The notes under the pieces: model-generated | Database searches by the model: none | Told to the model about the DNA's origin: nothing | What the model saw: only the letters and a program-made list of their open reading frames with translations | Assembly: GCA_001772665.1 (NCBI GenBank) | Contig: MEVH01000015.1 | Span: 13,223 to 50,283, forward strand | Source of the DNA: a candidate division WWE3 bacterium RIFCSPLOWO2_01_FULL_39_13 | GTDB lineage: Bacteria > Patescibacteriota > WWE3 > 2-01-FULL-39-13 | Direction: 5' to 3' | Length of the DNA: 37,061 bases | In this document: piece after piece, positions 8,338 through 17,823 of the stretch | How positions within the stretch are numbered: position 1 is the stretch's first letter | Layout of the letters: each line of letters opens with the position of its first letter | Made by a program: the position numbers and the translations under genes

Positions 8338-9243
8338 CTAGTCAGGTGCTTCCCTTTTTCTCCACCGGAAGTATCCTGCAGCTTCCGGCATCGATACCGC
8401 TGTAGCGACAATCAAGCCTCCAACTATCTCATTTACCGTTAACCGCTGATTCAAAAAAATCCATCCAAAAGCTGATGCAAAGAGTATTTCGCTCGATAAT
8501 ACTATTGTCCCCAAGTTTAGATCAAAATATTGGAATCCGATAACCAGCAGATAATTAAAGAGAACCAAAAGTCCTCCAGAAATAATAGCTGCTGAAATAG
8601 ATGGGAAAGTCAATTTATCTGCAAAGAAAAGCGACTGCTTAAAGTACATTGCAAAGGCTCCAGATATTACAATTCCTCCAGCCATTGGCACCGCCGCAAT
8701 TATTATCCGATCCATCCTTTCCGCTAAATGTTTTCTAAAACCATTAGAAACTACATCTAACAGTCCAGCCAATAAACCAAGCAGCACACCCCAGTTCAGC
8801 AAGTTACCTGAGAATGGGTTTGAGAACATTATTAGTCCAATAATTGCCAGCATAAGAGAAATGAACTTAAGTTTTGTAAGCTTTTCATTAAATACAAAGG
8901 CACCTATTATCAAACTTGCAGTGAACGCAGCCATATAAAAAGAAAATGTTGCCAAGGCTATCTTTGTAAAGAGAATGGAAAGTGTATAAAAAATTATTCC
9001 AAAAGGGAAAACTACACCAAGGAGTAATGTGTCTTTCGAAAACAGTACTTCTCTCTTTATGGCTGTCTTCTTAAAAAGAAGTACAGCTACCACAAATAGT
9101 GACGCAAGTAAATATCTGAAGAAAATCTGCTGAAAAGAGCCGAGATCTTCGTTTATGATAGTAATCCAGACCCCAAAAGATCCGTAACCGATAGCGCTTA
9201 GCAGTATTGCAACGAAACCTCTGTTTCTTGTTGAAACATTCAC
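8338..9243 (-). CDS. DMT/EamA-family transporter
   Basis: About 10 TM helices in two repeats; FVFNEKLT and IFLNQRLT…GGLI motifs. Confidence 0.85.
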   Translation of the reverse strand: MNVSTRNRGFVAILLSAIGYGSFGVWITIINEDLGSFQQIFFRYLLASLFVVAVLLFKKTAIKREVLFSKDTLLLGVVFPFGIIFYTLSILFTKIALATFSFYMAAFTASLIIGAFVFNEKLTKLKFISLMLAIIGLIMFSNPFSGNLLNWGVLLGLLAGLLDVVSNGFRKHLAERMDRIIIAAVPMAGGIVISGAFAMYFKQSLFFADKLTFPSISAAIISGGLLVLFNYLLVIGFQYFDLNLGTIVLSSEILFASAFGWIFLNQRLTVNEIVGGLIVATAVSMPEAAGYFRWRKREAPD

Positions 9244-9282
9244 CCTCAGATTATATCAGCAGCCGGTACCAATAACTGAAAG

Positions 9283-9343
9283 TGGTGGTGAGGGTGAGAA
9301 TCGGTCGCCACAGGCGACTTTCAGACCGGTGCCATGACTCACC
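9283..9343 (-). pseudogene. Defective tRNA-Phe copy carrying a 15-nt hairpin replacement
   Basis: 21 nt identical to the tRNA-Phe 3' end including CCA, then GTCGCC-ACA-GGCGAC (9304-9318), the anticodon region, and a 13-nt deletion across the acceptor/D-arm. Confidence 0.85.
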
Positions 9344-9370
9344 AATTAACTTATCCTCTACACCTTCTTC

Positions 9371-9446
9371 TGGTGGTGAGGGTGAGAATCGAACTCACAT
9401 AGCCGGTTTTTCAGACCGGTGCCGTGACCAACTTGGCTACCTCACC
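9371..9446 (-). tRNA. tRNA-Phe(GAA)
   Basis: Reverse complement folds as a cloverleaf: GGTGAGG/CCTCACC acceptor, CCGGT-CTGAAAA-ACCGG anticodon arm, TTCGATT T-loop, encoded CCA. Confidence 0.95.
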
Positions 9447-9472
9447 AAAATTTCAAACACATTATTTTATCA

Positions 9473-9644
9473 TGGAGGCCCGTATCGGAATCGGTCGCCA
9501 CAGGCGACTTGCAGACTCATGCCTTACCTCCATCCATTATCTTATCCATCGCTATATCTGGAGGCCCGTATCGGAATCGGTCGCCGTAGGCGACTTGCAG
9601 ACTCATGCCTTACCTCCATCCATTATCTTATCCATCGCTATATC
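9473..9644 (-). repeat. Two tandem 86-bp units, each a partial tRNA-Cys copy with hairpin replacement plus a 33-nt tail
   Basis: Units 9473-9558 and 9559-9644 are identical except the hairpin loop (ACA vs GTA). The third period starts the intact tRNA-Cys at 9645. Confidence 0.92.
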
Positions 9645-9718
9645 TGGAGGCCCGTATCGGAATCGAACCGATGGTGAGAGTTTTGCAGACTCATGCCTTG
9701 CCACTTGGCGAACGGGCC
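9645..9718 (-). tRNA. tRNA-Cys(GCA)
   Basis: GGCCCGT/ACGGGCC acceptor, U73 discriminator, CTGCAAA anticodon loop, ATCGG-TTCGATT-CCGAT T-arm, encoded CCA; 74 nt. Confidence 0.95.
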
Positions 9719-9721
9719 ACA

Positions 9722-9976
9722 CTATAAATTTAAATTATCTCCTAACTTCTTTTTAATTTGCTCCCTTCCTCGTCCACTCTTGATAAACTTTTCTCTTCTT
9801 TCAGCTTCAAACTTTTTTTTATAACATTCAAAATAAATCAACACAGGTTTCTGCCCACGAGTTGTTCTAACCTGACCGTTTAAATGCTCTAGCATCCTCC
9901 TGTCTAAATTATTCGTATATCCATAATAAAACCTGTTATTCTTTTGTCTAAGGACATAGACATAATACATTTTCAC
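9722..9976 (-). CDS. Small standalone GIY-YIG nuclease (UPF0213/Slx1-like)
   Basis: YYVYVL…FYYGYT motifs, LDRRMLEH and AERREKFIKSGRG; 82-84 aa (start GTG 9976 or ATG 9970). Confidence 0.9.
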   Translation of the reverse strand: MKMYYVYVLRQKNNRFYYGYTNNLDRRMLEHLNGQVRTTRGQKPVLIYFECYKKKFEAERREKFIKSGRGREQIKKKLGDNLNL

Positions 9977-9977
9977 C

Positions 9978-10066
9978 GAGACCCGTATCGGAATCGGTCA
10001 CCGTAGGCGACTTGCAGACTCATGCCTTACCACCCTCCTACGGCGGGCATGCTTGGCGAACGAGCC
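9978..10066 (-). pseudogene. Near full-length defective tRNA-Cys copy with two hairpin inserts
   Basis: Colinear with 9645-9718 but has GTCACC-GTA-GGCGAC (9997-10011), a D-loop insert containing CCCTCC-TAC-GGCGGG, acceptor substitutions and no CCA. Confidence 0.85.
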
Positions 10067-10088
10067 AAAGAATCTTTCTTCAAAGGAA

Positions 10089-10097
10089 ATTATACCA
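10089..10097 (-). promoter_or_regulatory. Extended -10 (TGGTATAAT), probably driving the pseudo-tRNA/GIY-YIG/tRNA cluster
   Basis: Perfect TGn-TATAAT about 22 nt upstream of the first tRNA-like copy. Confidence 0.55.
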
Positions 10098-10166
10098 ATT
10101 AAAAGCTTTACTGGACACGCAAACCACGTCTTCGTCTATTCTTTGGGTCTATGATATTATCTTTCT

Positions 10167-13300: not shown

Positions 13301-13744
13301 TTATAATGATATCTTCTTTATTACTGCATCGGGCTCCATTCTGATTACCCCAATTTTGTCAAAATCCTTGTCATATGAAATCACTATCCACTCTCGGCTT
13401 GAAACATTATCTATAGAGGATATTAATGCATCAATATACTTTACAGATTTATCGTTATAGATCCTAAGCGCACCTTCATAGTTGTACTTGTCCACGATAT
13501 CAAGCCCGTGGAGATTATGTATACTTTGAAGCGAGTAAATTACATCTTCTTTTGAAAGCCTGTAAAACGACTTCAGTGTCCAGACTATTTCCGCTAAAAT
13601 AATCCCTGCAGTAACCGATTTAACCTTATTCATTTTAACAAGCTTCAAAAACCCTACACAGTCATTAAACATTCGTGCATCATCTTTTATTATTGTTCTC
13701 AGAAAAATATTAGAGTCAATAAAATAGGTTTTAGACTCTTTCAT
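13301..13744 (-). CDS. PIN-domain (VapC-like) toxin
   Basis: FIDSNIFLR, AEIVW, YIDALI and SYDKDF acidic PIN motifs. Confidence 0.9.
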   Translation of the reverse strand: MKESKTYFIDSNIFLRTIIKDDARMFNDCVGFLKLVKMNKVKSVTAGIILAEIVWTLKSFYRLSKEDVIYSLQSIHNLHGLDIVDKYNYEGALRIYNDKSVKYIDALISSIDNVSSREWIVISYDKDFDKIGVIRMEPDAVIKKISL

Positions 13745-14933: not shown

Positions 14934-16241
14934 ATGGATCAGGCTGAAAACAAAGTGCAGGATCCAGCTTTTCCTGCCAAAGATATTCCTAAAGAAAACT
15001 CAATGCTGCCGGATATGTCGGGAGAAGACAATGGAAGCAAGGTAAATCAGTCAGAATATGCAGAAAAATTACCATTATTTTCAAGACAGCAAATTAGAAA
15101 GTATATGTCTAAAGCTGTATTACTCTTCTTAATTATTTTTTTAATTCCCGCTGGAATTTTCGCATATAAAAAATTCTGGCCGATGACTCAAACGCCGACT
15201 CCTGCACCACCGCCCGATGAAAATCCAATAATCCCTCCTCCGCCCGAGAAACAACCTGTACTTTTGGCCTATGTGAAAAACCAGAAAGAAATATGGGTTG
15301 CCGACAGCAATGGTGAAAACAAAATAAAAGCTGCTGAGCTTCCCCCAGGATCTCTAAAAACTTTTACAGCTCTAAACTGGAAAGCCAAAGACAAAATCGC
15401 CTATTCAAGCTGTGAAGAAAAAACCGGATGTGACCTTGTCACCATCGATCTTAACGATAAATCAACATCCCTTGAAGACAGAACAAAAGCAACAATAATA
15501 AGAAAATTCACTTTCAGCACTGACGATAATTATTTGGCATACATAACCGATGACACTAAAAATACAAACTTATATCTTAGAACAGGCGCAATAACTTCAA
15601 GTCTGGCATCCTTTAGAACCGCTGTTGACGAAACAAAAGTCAAATCAAGGGTCTTGTTTACAAAAGACAATCAGTACGTTGTCTTTTCAACTCTCCGCAA
15701 AGACCTTATTCCTTCAAAAGAAGATAAAACCAAAATGACAGAACTTATATATCCAATAATTTATGCTTTCAGCCCAAATGGAGCAAAAGTAGACGAGATA
15801 AGAGACGCAGCCGATCCGTTCCTTGTTGAAAACAACCTAATAGGATACACACAATCAGGAAAGTTTTTATACAAAGAAATAGGATCAACCGAATTCTCTG
15901 AAATTACTGAATCATCTGGACTTCAACTGGTGATGTCTCCAGACAAAACCAAAATCGCCTACTGGAAGACAGATGATGAGTTTGCAACCTCTGTAGTCCT
16001 CGGATTATTTGAAACCAAAACAAATATCCACCGCAACATTATAAGGGGGGTAATCCTTCCCGTCTGGCTCAGTGATGATAAATTAATCGGAATAAAAGTA
16101 GACAACTGCATTGGTGAAAGCTGTCTGCTGTACGAATTTAAAACTGCAAGCATTGGAATCATTGATATAAACAACGGAAACATTCAGTTAATTGACCAGG
16201 GCAAATCCATTACCGAGGTTTCAACAAATAATGCCTATTAA
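14934..16241 (+). CDS. Membrane-anchored beta-propeller (TolB-like) protein
   Basis: Single TM segment, Pro-rich linker and PD40-like repeats (FSTDDNYLAY, MSPDKTKIAY). Start placed at ATG 14934. Confidence 0.7.
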   Translation: MDQAENKVQDPAFPAKDIPKENSMLPDMSGEDNGSKVNQSEYAEKLPLFSRQQIRKYMSKAVLLFLIIFLIPAGIFAYKKFWPMTQTPTPAPPPDENPIIPPPPEKQPVLLAYVKNQKEIWVADSNGENKIKAAELPPGSLKTFTALNWKAKDKIAYSSCEEKTGCDLVTIDLNDKSTSLEDRTKATIIRKFTFSTDDNYLAYITDDTKNTNLYLRTGAITSSLASFRTAVDETKVKSRVLFTKDNQYVVFSTLRKDLIPSKEDKTKMTELIYPIIYAFSPNGAKVDEIRDAADPFLVENNLIGYTQSGKFLYKEIGSTEFSEITESSGLQLVMSPDKTKIAYWKTDDEFATSVVLGLFETKTNIHRNIIRGVILPVWLSDDKLIGIKVDNCIGESCLLYEFKTASIGIIDINNGNIQLIDQGKSITEVSTNNAY

Positions 16242-17823
16242 AGAAGAAACAATTGAAGGATCTGCAGGAAGAAGGCATCCTGTTCCGCAAAATGTAATGG
16301 ATGTCGAATTCAAAGTTGTTGGAGACCTGACGGTAAGACAGCTCATGTACCTGTTCGCAGGGATGAGCCTTGCCTACATATTCCATAAATCCGGGCTTCC
16401 TGCATTCTGGAGATGGGTATTTATGCTTCTTATTGGAGGATTATCTGTTGCTGTTGCATTCGTTCCGATACAGGAAAGAAGCCTTGATAAATGGCTTATC
16501 AGTTTTATAAAGGCGATGACCGGTCCTGGGCAGAGAGTCTGGAGAAAATCTTACACTCCTCCCGCATATTTTCTGGCTGACTATGCGCAGATAATTAGAA
16601 ATGAAATTATTACTCTAACACCTGCCAAAAGCCGCAGCAAACTCGACGAATATCTTGGCCAGCTGCCAGAAATCCAAACCGATATAGACAAATATGAAGA
16701 TATGAATCTTAAAAACATACATTCGGCATTTGCAAGCTCAACTGCCGATCTGCCGATTGATATACCTCAATCAGATAGACTCCCAGACATGAGAGGCACC
16801 CCAGCAGTTGCTCTAGAAACCCAAGAGGAACCCGAACCATCTGAACTTCCAGAATTTAAGCTTCCAGGGATAAAAACTTCTGAGGCAAAGACACCCGAAG
16901 TCAAGACTTTGAAACCCGCCAAAAAGAAAATGGATCAGGATGAAATAGAATCAAAGCTTGATTTTATGGAAGGATTCGACAGACGCCCGGTTAAAATCGA
17001 CATTACATCTCCGGGTCCGATAGATAGAGCTTTAGTCAATCTTCCGCCTGAATTAAGGGGAGAAATAAATATAGCCACCAAATCAAAACTTCCCACAACA
17101 ATTCTCACAGAAGATGTAGAAGAAATAAAAAGACAGGAAGACAAGCTTGCAAAACAGGCAGGCGAACTTCTCGAGGTTATGAAGAAGGCGAGAGTACAGC
17201 TTAAATACAGCGCAGACGATCCTTCTCAGAATGAAGGAAGAATAGAATTTTACAGGACAAAATACGAAAACATTTCAAAGGAAAGAGAAAAAATATCAGA
17301 AAAAATAAGCCAGAGCAAAGGAAAAGGCATAGACCAGGATCAGGCAGACAATGTTTCTCTAGAAGTTAAAGACACCGTGAAATCTCTGACAGAAAACAAC
17401 CGTAACCTGAAAAATAAGCTAACACAGATACAATCAGAACTGGATTTTCTTAAAGACAAAGCAAAGCAGATTGAAATGGCAGGAAGTCAAAGCACATCAA
17501 CAACTCCAGCCGACACCGGATCAGGATTAGCTGCTTCTCCAATCGGCTTTAATAATGCCGATCCAAATGTCATTACAGGAATAGTAAAAGGGAGGAGCGG
17601 AGATTTGGTTGAAGGCGCGGTAATTATAATAAAAGACGGTGACGGAGACGTTGTTAGAGCTCTAAAAACAAACAAGCTCGGCCAGTTCAAAACACAGACC
17701 TCTCTGCCAGACGGAAAATACACCATAGAAGTAATAAAAGGCGGAGAGAAGTTTGATATAATCTCGGTTAAAGCCACAGGAAAAAATATTCCACCAGTCT
17801 ATCTTGTTGCAAAAGAGACATAA
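16231..17823 (+). CDS. PrgI-family protein with coiled coil and C-terminal carboxypeptidase-regulatory-like Ig domain
   Basis: HPVPQNVMDVEFKVVGDLTVRQL plus 2 TM helices; C-terminal GIVK…GAVIIIKD…TNKLGQF…DGKYTI. Confidence 0.8.
   Translation: MPIKEETIEGSAGRRHPVPQNVMDVEFKVVGDLTVRQLMYLFAGMSLAYIFHKSGLPAFWRWVFMLLIGGLSVAVAFVPIQERSLDKWLISFIKAMTGPGQRVWRKSYTPPAYFLADYAQIIRNEIITLTPAKSRSKLDEYLGQLPEIQTDIDKYEDMNLKNIHSAFASSTADLPIDIPQSDRLPDMRGTPAVALETQEEPEPSELPEFKLPGIKTSEAKTPEVKTLKPAKKKMDQDEIESKLDFMEGFDRRPVKIDITSPGPIDRALVNLPPELRGEINIATKSKLPTTILTEDVEEIKRQEDKLAKQAGELLEVMKKARVQLKYSADDPSQNEGRIEFYRTKYENISKEREKISEKISQSKGKGIDQDQADNVSLEVKDTVKSLTENNRNLKNKLTQIQSELDFLKDKAKQIEMAGSQSTSTTPADTGSGLAASPIGFNNADPNVITGIVKGRSGDLVEGAVIIIKDGDGDVVRALKTNKLGQFKTQTSLPDGKYTIEVIKGGEKFDIISVKATGKNIPPVYLVAKET

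Follow-up and report, generated by a model that had tools for sequence, protein, structure and literature searches.

The GIY-YIG nuclease SegB, whose gene sits in phage tRNA clusters, belongs to the I-TevI/UvrC-like lineage and carries DNA-binding modules. Excerpts of two papers report that SegB of phages T4 and T6 cleaves within the tRNA gene region and promotes its own inheritance (PMC2330249), and that it drives the amplification of tRNA genes in tandem segments and, across phages, shows significant co-location with tRNAs of many isotypes (PMC13096335). Here we describe a GIY-YIG nuclease gene that is likewise embedded among tRNA genes, alongside the tRNA-Cys and tRNA-Phe genes of candidate division WWE3 bacterium RIFCSPLOWO2_01_FULL_39_13 and damaged, palindrome-bearing copies of them. 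The stretch analyzed, which we call the window, comprises 37,061 nt of contig MEVH01000015.1 (C15:13223-50283) from an 801-kb genome (39% GC, 93% complete). Unlike SegB, the protein is a bare 82-residue domain of the Slx1/UPF0213 type. Unlike the phage-borne SegB, its family is bacterial and chromosomal: tblastn with this query gave no match in 50,697 phage records, nor in 72,556 plasmid records. Also unlike SegB, the locus combines partial duplication of the target with palindromes, neither of which is mentioned in the excerpts of PMC2330249 and PMC13096335. The feature is real, general and not ordinary, and is apparently a new form of free-standing selfish nuclease gene.

Integrative elements that target tRNA genes leave a complete and a partial tRNA copy and preserve the host tRNA (PMC9897764, in excerpt), and here too, as with prophages, integrative and conjugative elements and genomic islands at tRNAs, the host tRNA is preserved. 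Such tRNA-integrating islands measure 9 kb or more and use tyrosine or serine recombinases, whereas the insert here is ~0.3 kb long and holds only one open reading frame (ORF), the GIY-YIG gene. Unlike the partial copies left by integrase islands, those described here contain a palindrome that interrupts them, and the duplicated part of the tRNA may be the 5' or the 3' one. GIY-YIG ORFs have also been reported, as sparse, in the insertion sequences that rRNA genes of the candidate phyla radiation (CPR) carry (excerpts of PMC11270868). These resemble our cassettes in being small GIY-YIG ORFs inside stable-RNA genes of the same phylum, and two of our own loci, L239 and L243, lie in 23S rRNA; the word tRNA is absent from the main text of that paper (PMC11270868), and tRNA-linked cassettes are far commoner in our samples. 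Like free-standing homing endonucleases, the gene is present or absent at a conserved target, with 11 relatives lacking it in a comparison at genus level only. The preliminary description of this locus knew of no described system with its layout. The open literature, subscription journals aside, agrees, in that we found no paper on small UPF0213-type GIY-YIG genes beside bacterial tRNA genes; SegB and the GIY-YIG ORFs of CPR rRNA insertions are partial precedents.

On the minus strand, the array reads directly as the motif TGGTATAAT, a tRNA-Cys look-alike, the GIY-YIG ORF, intact tRNA-Cys, two solo Cys units, intact tRNA-Phe and a tRNA-Phe look-alike (Table 1), the same order that the preliminary description had drawn after an extended -10. 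TGGTATAAT is the sole motif of its kind upstream of the entire array, and it is missing from a consensus promoter scan because that scan demands a -35 hexamer, of which there is none. The Cys look-alike consists of tRNA-Cys positions 1-37, a hairpin, and positions 56-73, with blastn-short matches to tRNA-Cys over positions 15-36 and 54-68. It ends in CGG instead of CCA, has two C-to-T changes in the acceptor stem and a 19-nt insert in the D-loop (10051-10033), and is unable to serve as a tRNA. The nuclease ORF follows. Its real start is probably ATG 9970, 5 nt past the look-alike, rather than GTG 9976 (84 residues in the ORF listing), because all 24 aligned homologues begin M-[YFW]-x-x-Y. Its stop codon lies 3 nt from tRNA-Cys, and the gene is thus bracketed by a tRNA duplication, as had been noticed.

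The solo Cys units are each composed of a spacer, tRNA-Cys positions ~18-37, a hairpin, and positions 56-76 including CCA; Tandem Repeats Finder (TRF) reports a period of 86, 2.3 copies and a 97% match. Their 3' end is that of the intact tRNA-Cys, and they have in common with the Cys look-alike a GGTAAGG variant where the intact gene reads GGCAAGG. The Phe look-alike retains the acceptor 5' strand, the D-arm minus 13 nt, the 5' strand of the anticodon stem with its loop, then a hairpin and positions 56-76. In all of these modified copies the tRNA is kept through position 37/38 and resumes at 56 in the T-loop (aligned by eye), and in every one a 15-nt GC hairpin substitutes for 17-18 nt at about positions 38-55, a stretch that comprises the 3' strand of the anticodon stem, the variable loop, the 5' strand of the T stem, and UU. 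The hairpin pattern GTCGCCYRYGGYGAC has four sites in the window, all on the minus strand and one in each defective copy; the expectation for GTCGCC-YRY-GGYGAC in the shuffled window is 0.02, and none of 100 shuffles reaches four. ARAGORN calls only two tRNAs in the window, Phe and Cys, and Infernal/Rfam concurs; the four modified copies receive no call from ARAGORN, nor from Infernal up to E 1.

The UPF0213 family, to which YhbQ of E. coli belongs, has had structural-genomics structures for two decades and, to our knowledge, no assigned function. The window protein scores 49 bits with Pfam PF01541 (GIY-YIG), where the curated cut-off is 22.6 (E 7.5e-13), over positions 1-72 of the 78 in the profile, and consists of that one Pfam domain, with no second domain; homologues are 75-108 residues long. 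Pfam detects no sequence-specific DNA-binding domain of the SegB/I-TevI kind, and neither PADLOC nor NCBIfam holds a family that the protein matches. When a profile of 24 homologues was compared with PDB sequences, the UPF0213 proteins BH0048 (1zg2, 3.3e-18) and EF2693 (1ywl, 3e-15) led as the best matches among solved structures, followed by eukaryotic SLX1 chains (5e-7 to 3e-5); there was no UvrC or I-TevI chain among the seven matches. On these alignments, the protein is a minimal stand-alone UPF0213/Slx1-type GIY-YIG domain. Y5, Y15, G17, R25, H29, E60 and K64 are invariant across the 24 diverse homologues, including the two Tyr, the Gly, the Arg and the Glu that we take to be catalytic, and the conservation of these residues suggests that the ORF encodes an intact, putatively active nuclease. 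No invariant Asn follows E60 in the sequence-only alignment of the 24 homologues. According to excerpts of PMC1564403, a C-terminal Asn present in the UvrC/I-TevI lineage is lacking in the bacterial Slx1-like clade, whose members are stand-alone domains and show the GIY-YIG fold in a minimal form. Adjacency to tRNA genes is not mentioned in those excerpts.

The preliminary description had looked to an association of homologues with tRNA genes, and the linkage that we find is strong and co-directional. The loci sampled from the class, the phylum and all phyla are the best-scoring matches, not random draws. In the class, 75 of 134 genomes hold a homologue (183 matches, up to 10 per genome). We examined the 70 best-scoring loci (30 first and 40 more), which contain 69 unique ORFs. 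A tRNA lies within 350 nt in 25 of the first 30 loci and for 53 of the 69 ORFs, and within 100 nt for 44; the same-strand tRNA is downstream in 35 and upstream in 21, and at least 18 isotypes are represented. Not one of the 69 ORFs has an opposite-strand tRNA within 150 nt. The chance expectation, taken from the window's genome, is low: 1.5% of its bases are no more than 100 nt from a tRNA, and 3.9% no more than 350 nt; binomial figures are only a rough guide because related genomes are not independent. The phylum sample gave matches in 147 of 201 genomes (~510 in total, up to 15 per ~1-Mb genome), with a tRNA within 350 nt for 20 of 31 ORFs, on the same strand in 20/20. With one genome scanned per species, 141 relatives emerged, of which 80 were kept, from CPR, Bacteroidota, Gammaproteobacteria, Thermodesulfobacteriota, Omnitrophota, Marinimicrobia, Planctomycetes, Chloroflexota and others; in these many-phyla records 52 of 93 ORFs have a tRNA within 350 nt, again all on the same strand (52/52). 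In an unbiased census of six single-contig genomes, 16 of 32 small GIY-YIG genes are tRNA-linked, 16/16 on the same strand (G155 4/13, G268 0/3, G249 2/3, G182 5/7, G322 2/3, G189 3/3). Most census genes without a tRNA neighbour have lower scores with the profile, whose members are mainly tRNA-linked. Records of the culturable Flavobacteriaceae Zunongwangia pacifica and Mesonia oceanica are among the carriers.

The tRNA duplication seen in the window is also widespread. Where an ORF has a same-strand tRNA within 150 nt, we screened its opposite flank (250 nt) for exact matches of 11 nt or more to that tRNA, leaving out flanks that contain a called tRNA. A far-flank partial copy of the adjacent tRNA was present in 58 of 93 cases (class 24/45, phylum 8/12, all phyla 26/36) against 0/102 in the reversed-flank control, and 38 of the 58 copies have a GC hairpin within 6 nt of the breakpoint (class 13, phylum 5, all phyla 20). 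GC hairpins occur at 2.43 per kb in the 150-nt flanks of the ORFs and at 0.45 per kb elsewhere in the loci, a comparison that is partly one of intergenic with coding DNA. Degenerate tRNA copies with short GC hairpins are enriched, as had been anticipated, on the ORF's far side. Two orientations recur: a palindrome-interrupted 5' or whole copy, then the ORF, then the intact tRNA (orientation A, as in the window's Cys locus), or the intact tRNA, then the ORF, then a palindrome-interrupted 3' or whole copy (orientation B). The place of the palindrome within the copy differs among loci (Table 1). A strict search for position 37, hairpin and position 56 found just nine copies in the 70 class loci, and we adopted the general partial-copy test because breakpoints vary with tRNA type.

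The palindromes themselves are related across phyla. A 20-nt perfect palindrome, CCTGCCTGCCGGCAGGCAGG, recurs with small variants in broken tRNA copies beside GIY-YIG ORFs of CPR, Bacteroidota and Omnitrophota, and GTCGCC...GGCGAC is also found in one gammaproteobacterial and one Saccharibacteria record. The hairpin stem covaries among lineages, as GTCGCC/GGCGAC, TCCGCC/GGCGGA or CCCTGTG/CACAGGG. Single mismatches in the flank hairpins show no strand (RNA) bias, with 5 G.T against 8 A.C, in an underpowered count of small numbers. As a separate observation, the palindrome CCATGAACC-n6-GGTTCATGG occurs at L029, L037, L047 and L052, after tRNA 3' ends or before GIY-YIG ORFs, and sometimes begins inside the GCCA end of the tRNA.

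Table 1. Features of the array (window coordinates) and loci that carry the recurrent palindromes and repeats.
Feature	Position or loci	Strand	Basis or remark
Extended -10 promoter-like motif TGGTATAAT	10089..10097	minus	read from sequence
Full-length tRNA-Cys look-alike, 91 nt	9976..10066	minus	reading; blastn-short
Hairpin 1, GTCGCC-TAC-GGTGAC, one G.T pair	9997..10011	minus	pattern search
GIY-YIG nuclease ORF, 82 residues from ATG 9970, TAG stop 9724-9722	9722..9970	minus	ORF reading, Pfam
Intact tRNA-Cys(GCA), the assembly's only tRNA-Cys	9645..9718	minus	ARAGORN; Rfam tRNA 55.9 bits
Solo unit 1, 86 nt, hairpin GTCGCC-TAC-GGCGAC at 9580-9594	9559..9644	minus	reading, TRF
Solo unit 2, 86 nt, hairpin loop TGT (9494-9508), otherwise as unit 1	9473..9558	minus	reading, TRF
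Intact tRNA-Phe(GAA), the assembly's only tRNA-Phe	9371..9446	minus	ARAGORN, Infernal/Rfam
tRNA-Phe look-alike, 61 nt	9283..9343	minus	reading; blastn-short
Hairpin of the Phe look-alike, GTCGCC-TGT-GGCGAC	9304-9318	minus	pattern search
Palindrome in D-loop/D-arm	L143, L166, L178, L130, L172		reading of loci
Palindrome in anticodon loop/arm	L153, L128, L124, L026		reading of loci
Palindrome in T-loop/T-arm	L162, L028, L035		reading of loci
Palindrome replacing positions 38-55	window, L023, L024, L032		reading of loci
CCTGCCTGCCGGCAGGCAGG palindrome	L037, L055, L143, L153, L166, L178, L130, L162, L194, L246		L162 (Marinimicrobia-type) is a diverged form
CCCCGTGAGATA-like repeats	L123, L129, L145, L156, L163, L174, L175, L176, L192, L233		

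The preliminary description had treated scattering of the hairpin over the genome, independent of tRNAs, as fatal to its proposal. Allowing one mismatch, the hairpin has seven sites in the genome, of which six lie inside tRNA-derived copies, and a reversed control pattern has none. The sites outside the array include two tandem 51-nt hairpin units directly 3' of tRNA-Trp(CCA) on contig C7 (G000:C7:54962-55045, L008), between the L33 gene and the secE region. Each of these runs from the anticodon loop through the hairpin to the remainder of the T-loop and the acceptor 3' strand with CCA, with the break at position 37. There is no GIY-YIG gene near the Trp units on C7, and the hairpin is therefore bound to tRNA copies and not always to a nuclease gene in cis. 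In a blastn-short comparison of the genome's 45 tRNAs with the genome, partial copies appeared only at the Cys, Phe and Trp loci, along with a short T-arm match on C22. GC-rich palindromes that accompany a single small nuclease gene, with ORF-less copies, are familiar from repetitive extragenic palindromes (REP) and their RAYT transposases, and from the miniature inverted-repeat transposable elements (MITEs) and palindrome-associated elements (PATEs) of IS200/IS605. Unlike in those elements, which rely on an HUH/Y1 enzyme, the nuclease here is GIY-YIG; and unlike the hundreds of REP-type copies scattered between genes, the few palindromes here stay almost wholly within tRNA-derived sequence.

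A second small GIY-YIG gene of the same genome, encoding 85 residues, lies directly 3' of tRNA-Glu(UUC) on the same strand (G000:C21:3236-3600, L018), with other, AT-rich hairpins and a ~10-nt repeat of the tRNA-Glu 3' end on both sides of the ORF. We also tried GTCT before the anticodon as a requirement for hairpin copies and rejected it: it is present in all three tRNAs with such copies, yet also in 9 of the 45 tRNAs, and was chosen post hoc. The T-arm match on C22 belongs to an orphan tRNA-like element (C22:14335-14405, minus strand; L007:1809-1878) that has an acceptor stem, T-arm and CCA around an odd middle. ARAGORN does not call it, its match to a transfer-messenger RNA (tmRNA) type is weak (15.7 bits), and comparison shows it to be no copy of the tmRNA that the genome itself encodes. 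Downstream of it, at 60-300 nt, are GC hairpins.

Several comparisons bear on what travels. Within this genome one hairpin type occupies the Cys, Phe and Trp copies, and the arms are 100% identical to the local tRNA over 17-21 nt. Among homologues, the protein clade of L023, L024 and L032 (support of 95 in the Shimodaira-Hasegawa-like approximate likelihood ratio test, SH-aLRT) has the TCCGCC hairpin and the 37/56 breakpoints in common, at Cys and Phe genes. Six Gln-linked proteins form one clade (SH-aLRT 99). Lys- and Pro-linked proteins also group in small clades, among them two related copies that one genome carries at tRNA-Pro(CGG) and tRNA-Pro(GGG). By this comparison, ORF and palindrome appear to travel together, with the tRNA-derived arms copied from whichever tRNA is hit.

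Relatives with empty Cys and Phe loci, which the preliminary description had thought worth seeking, do exist. All 11 family relatives have a single tRNA-Cys and a single tRNA-Phe with no GIY-YIG gene within 1.5 kb. Two of them, G001 and G008, read TATAAT at the place equivalent to TGGTATAAT before tRNA-Cys, and tRNA-Phe follows tRNA-Cys after a spacer of 42 nt in G001 and 62 nt in G008; neither genome has an insert or hairpin copies there. A third, G009, has a diverged Phe-type hairpin copy ~600 nt downstream of tRNA-Phe, beyond an intervening gene. The nearest homologues of the window protein, at 43-57% identity, are in other families and phyla. Thus, the cassette was apparently gained in the window's lineage, as judged at genus level and not within a species. 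The neighbouring radical-SAM gene is of little help as a synteny marker, being present in only 2 of the 11 family genomes and adjoining the tRNAs in neither. The hairpin pattern extended by CGA occurs in 4 of 41 genomes of relatives, the window's own included, and in 2 of 15 in the order; of the relatives' matches, only that of G009 is derived from tRNA-Phe, and the match in G022 follows a tRNA-Ser with no recognisable tRNA fragment. In G027 (L010, L013), the hairpin GTCGCCCCAGGCGAC lies within a ~200-nt repeat present at two loci, in which we recognised no tRNA-derived sequence.

Signs of turnover are common among the homologues. Copies with internal stops are present in the class, phylum and census match lists, numerous copies lie at contig ends, and near-identical GIY-YIG units form tandem arrays at L063, L121, L162, L167 and L251; examples are four units with a period of ~317 nt in a Saprospiraceae record and two of ~321 nt after tRNA-Pro in G322.

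Stable RNAs other than tRNA are also occupied. GIY-YIG ORFs lie within 23S rRNA genes on the rRNA strand (L239 in G268, L243 in G249), flanked by ~13-nt inverted repeats such as CCCCGCCAATTTA / TAAATTGGCGGGG. In G155, one ORF abuts the 5' end of the RNase P RNA gene on the same strand (L227/L225) and another lies ~140 nt 3' of the tmRNA gene, also on the same strand (L231). The Rfam match of the G155 RNase P RNA spans 651 nt for a model of 367 positions, and the gene itself may hold an insertion. Among ORFs with no adjoining tRNA, inverted repeats of at least 10 nt flank 20 of 90, against 9 of 1051 mismatched-flank controls. A conserved inverted repeat of 12-14 nt resembling CCCCGTGAGATA closely flanks such ORFs in several phyla (Table 1), and these repeats look like terminal inverted repeats.

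Collectively, the cassettes form a large, multi-copy and patchy family that lies in or beside stable-RNA genes, mostly tRNAs, and always on the same strand. The selfish nuclease-plus-palindrome element proposed in the preliminary description, one that targets and duplicates tRNA genes, is what these comparisons favour, with mobility and nuclease activity as its predicted parts. We consider it somewhat probable that the window holds a tRNA-gene-targeting selfish cassette expressed by read-through, and we would give about the same weight to its composition as a ~0.4-kb unit of nuclease ORF, GC palindrome and partial tRNA copies within a tRNA-Cys/tRNA-Phe operon. The cassettes are possibly a new class of minimal mobile element. 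In the model that we propose, the cassette has no promoter of its own and would be transcribed by read-through from the tRNA promoter, and its mRNA would be released by the normal tRNA-processing cuts; the complete strand agreement and the start of the ORF a few nucleotides past the modified copy suggest as much. The nuclease would then nick or cut tRNA genes or the palindrome by way of structure, whether hairpin, cruciform or cloverleaf DNA, and not of a long sequence. That it is kin to Slx1 and has no DNA-binding domain suggests that structure is what it recognises, the candidate substrates being the palindrome or the cloverleaf of the tRNA gene. Recombinational repair with a cassette-bearing copy would install the palindrome, the ORF and the partial target duplication in the layout described above. 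One tRNA copy would stay intact, so that the host would survive, and the other would be interrupted by the palindrome. Recombination between direct repeats may then yield the solo palindrome copies, tandem units and loss of the ORF that we observe. Mobility is suggested by copies that are multi-copy, patchy, decaying, tandemly amplified, and accompanied by partial target duplications.

Several points weigh against this model. Each of its mechanistic steps, cleavage, mobility and transcription included, is deduced from comparison of sequences. An 82-residue domain with no DNA-binding module is unlike known homing endonucleases. The intact neighbouring tRNA should stay a target, and the model gives no account of how it is spared. 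The census links only half of the small GIY-YIG genes to tRNAs, with none of three in G268, and the class and phylum linkage figures come from best-scoring matches and not from a random sample. The protein tree is poorly resolved and its tRNA-label signal weak: it needs 32 changes of tRNA label, where shuffled labels need 37.7 on average and the minimum of 300 shuffles is also 32; we rely solely on its individually supported clades. Loss in the relatives might also account for the empty sites, since these are in other genera. Finally, no transfer vehicle came to light: phages and plasmids gave no homologue with this query.

A wider form of the same proposal can be put forward only tentatively. 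The minimal UPF0213/Slx1-like GIY-YIG genes might be the mobility enzymes of unrecognised, pan-bacterial elements of ~300 bp with palindromic or inverted-repeat ends, which would specifically colonise tRNA, tmRNA, RNase P RNA and 23S rRNA genes, find them by DNA structure in place of a long recognition sequence and regenerate the intact RNA gene by partial duplication of the target; the solo palindromes would be their ORF-less, MITE-like derivatives.

The alternative that survives best, though we think it unlikely, is a domesticated host factor. The protein would be a housekeeping nuclease co-expressed with stable RNAs, acting for instance on RNA, or on the R-loops or stalled forks of heavily transcribed tRNA genes, and the hairpin copies would be elements of mRNA processing or stability. 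Such a role would fit the complete strand agreement in every sample, the start of the ORF a few nucleotides from a modified copy, the conserved catalytic residues, the presence of the family in most sampled genomes of the phylum, and a reported protein in which a TrmH-type tRNA methyltransferase is fused with a bacterial Slx1-like domain (PMC1564403, in excerpt). It is harder to reconcile with a copy number that runs from 0 to 15 per genome, with patchy presence, and with the absence of the gene from the Cys/Phe loci of all 11 family relatives. Some copies are pseudogenes or stand in tandem arrays, the partial target duplications have the form usual for insertion events, and a factor acting in trans would need no place beside each tRNA. 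As for a function of the hairpin copies in mRNA, the modified copies (n = 6) fold no better than shuffled sequence (z +0.22 to -1.74).

The same folding result bears on the other half of the preliminary description, in which the hairpin-bearing tRNA-like transcripts act as guides, decoys or antitoxins in an RNA-based system. In type III toxin-antitoxin systems of the ToxIN kind, a repeat array stands upstream of the gene for an endoribonuclease toxin of known family; here, by comparison, the ORF and the tRNA both precede the repeats, and the window protein has no PADLOC match. Tandem 86-nt units beside a nuclease gene, a stem preserved by compensatory changes between lineages and one hairpin copy with a G.T pair are the features that call such a system to mind. 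A palindrome acting as DNA would covary equally well, however, and the mismatch counts, small as they are, show no sense-strand wobble bias. The retained part of the tRNA and the position of the hairpin vary by locus between D-loop, anticodon arm and T-arm, and the Trp locus has two units and no nuclease gene. We found no support for this reading and regard it as improbable.

Still less probable is that the copies are attachment-site scars left at tRNA genes when ordinary integrase-borne elements integrated and excised, in which case the GIY-YIG gene would be a passenger or there by coincidence. A partial tRNA copy beside a complete one is indeed the known footprint of integrative elements (PMC9897764, in excerpt). 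However, as the preliminary description had said of the neighbourhood, there is no match to an integrase or transposase family among the 13 ORFs over ~14 kb of the window (~3.4-17.8 kb; three of the 13 match no family at all). The interval between copies is just ~0.3 kb and always holds the same small ORF at dozens of independent loci, and palindromes sit at the breakpoints. A few kilobases from the array, the window also encodes a PIN-domain protein (13301-13744, minus strand) and a protein with a PrgI-family region (16192-17823, plus strand), neither with an apparent link to it.

That the repeats and the tRNA duplication are an assembly artefact of mis-joined metagenomic reads is hardly credible, although the region is rich in repeats and the array is never contained whole in one Logan contig, since Logan contigs from four runs of three studies (one possibly the source sample) cover it piecewise with no differences, bridge every junction (for example 9636-10007, 9588-10031, 9394-9531, 9502-9613, 9100-9418 and 10002-10141) and report no alternative joints, and since well over 100 independent assemblies, single-contig genomes among them, show this architecture too. 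The number of 86-nt units rests on this assembly, as no one contig spans the array.

For UPF0213, a very widespread family, these data provide a testable context in its strand-specific linkage to stable RNAs, target duplications and palindromes, and experiments are feasible because culturable Flavobacteriaceae are among the carriers. The cassettes matter for annotation, where they lead to false or missed tRNAs, and for assembly, since contig ends are where many of the copies lie. Studies of recombination and genome stability would have an interest in a nuclease that structure guides to tRNA genes. Should the cassettes prove mobile, they would rank with the smallest known autonomous selfish elements and would repeatedly give rise to tRNA gene duplications, tRNA pseudogenes and tandem arrays in streamlined genomes.

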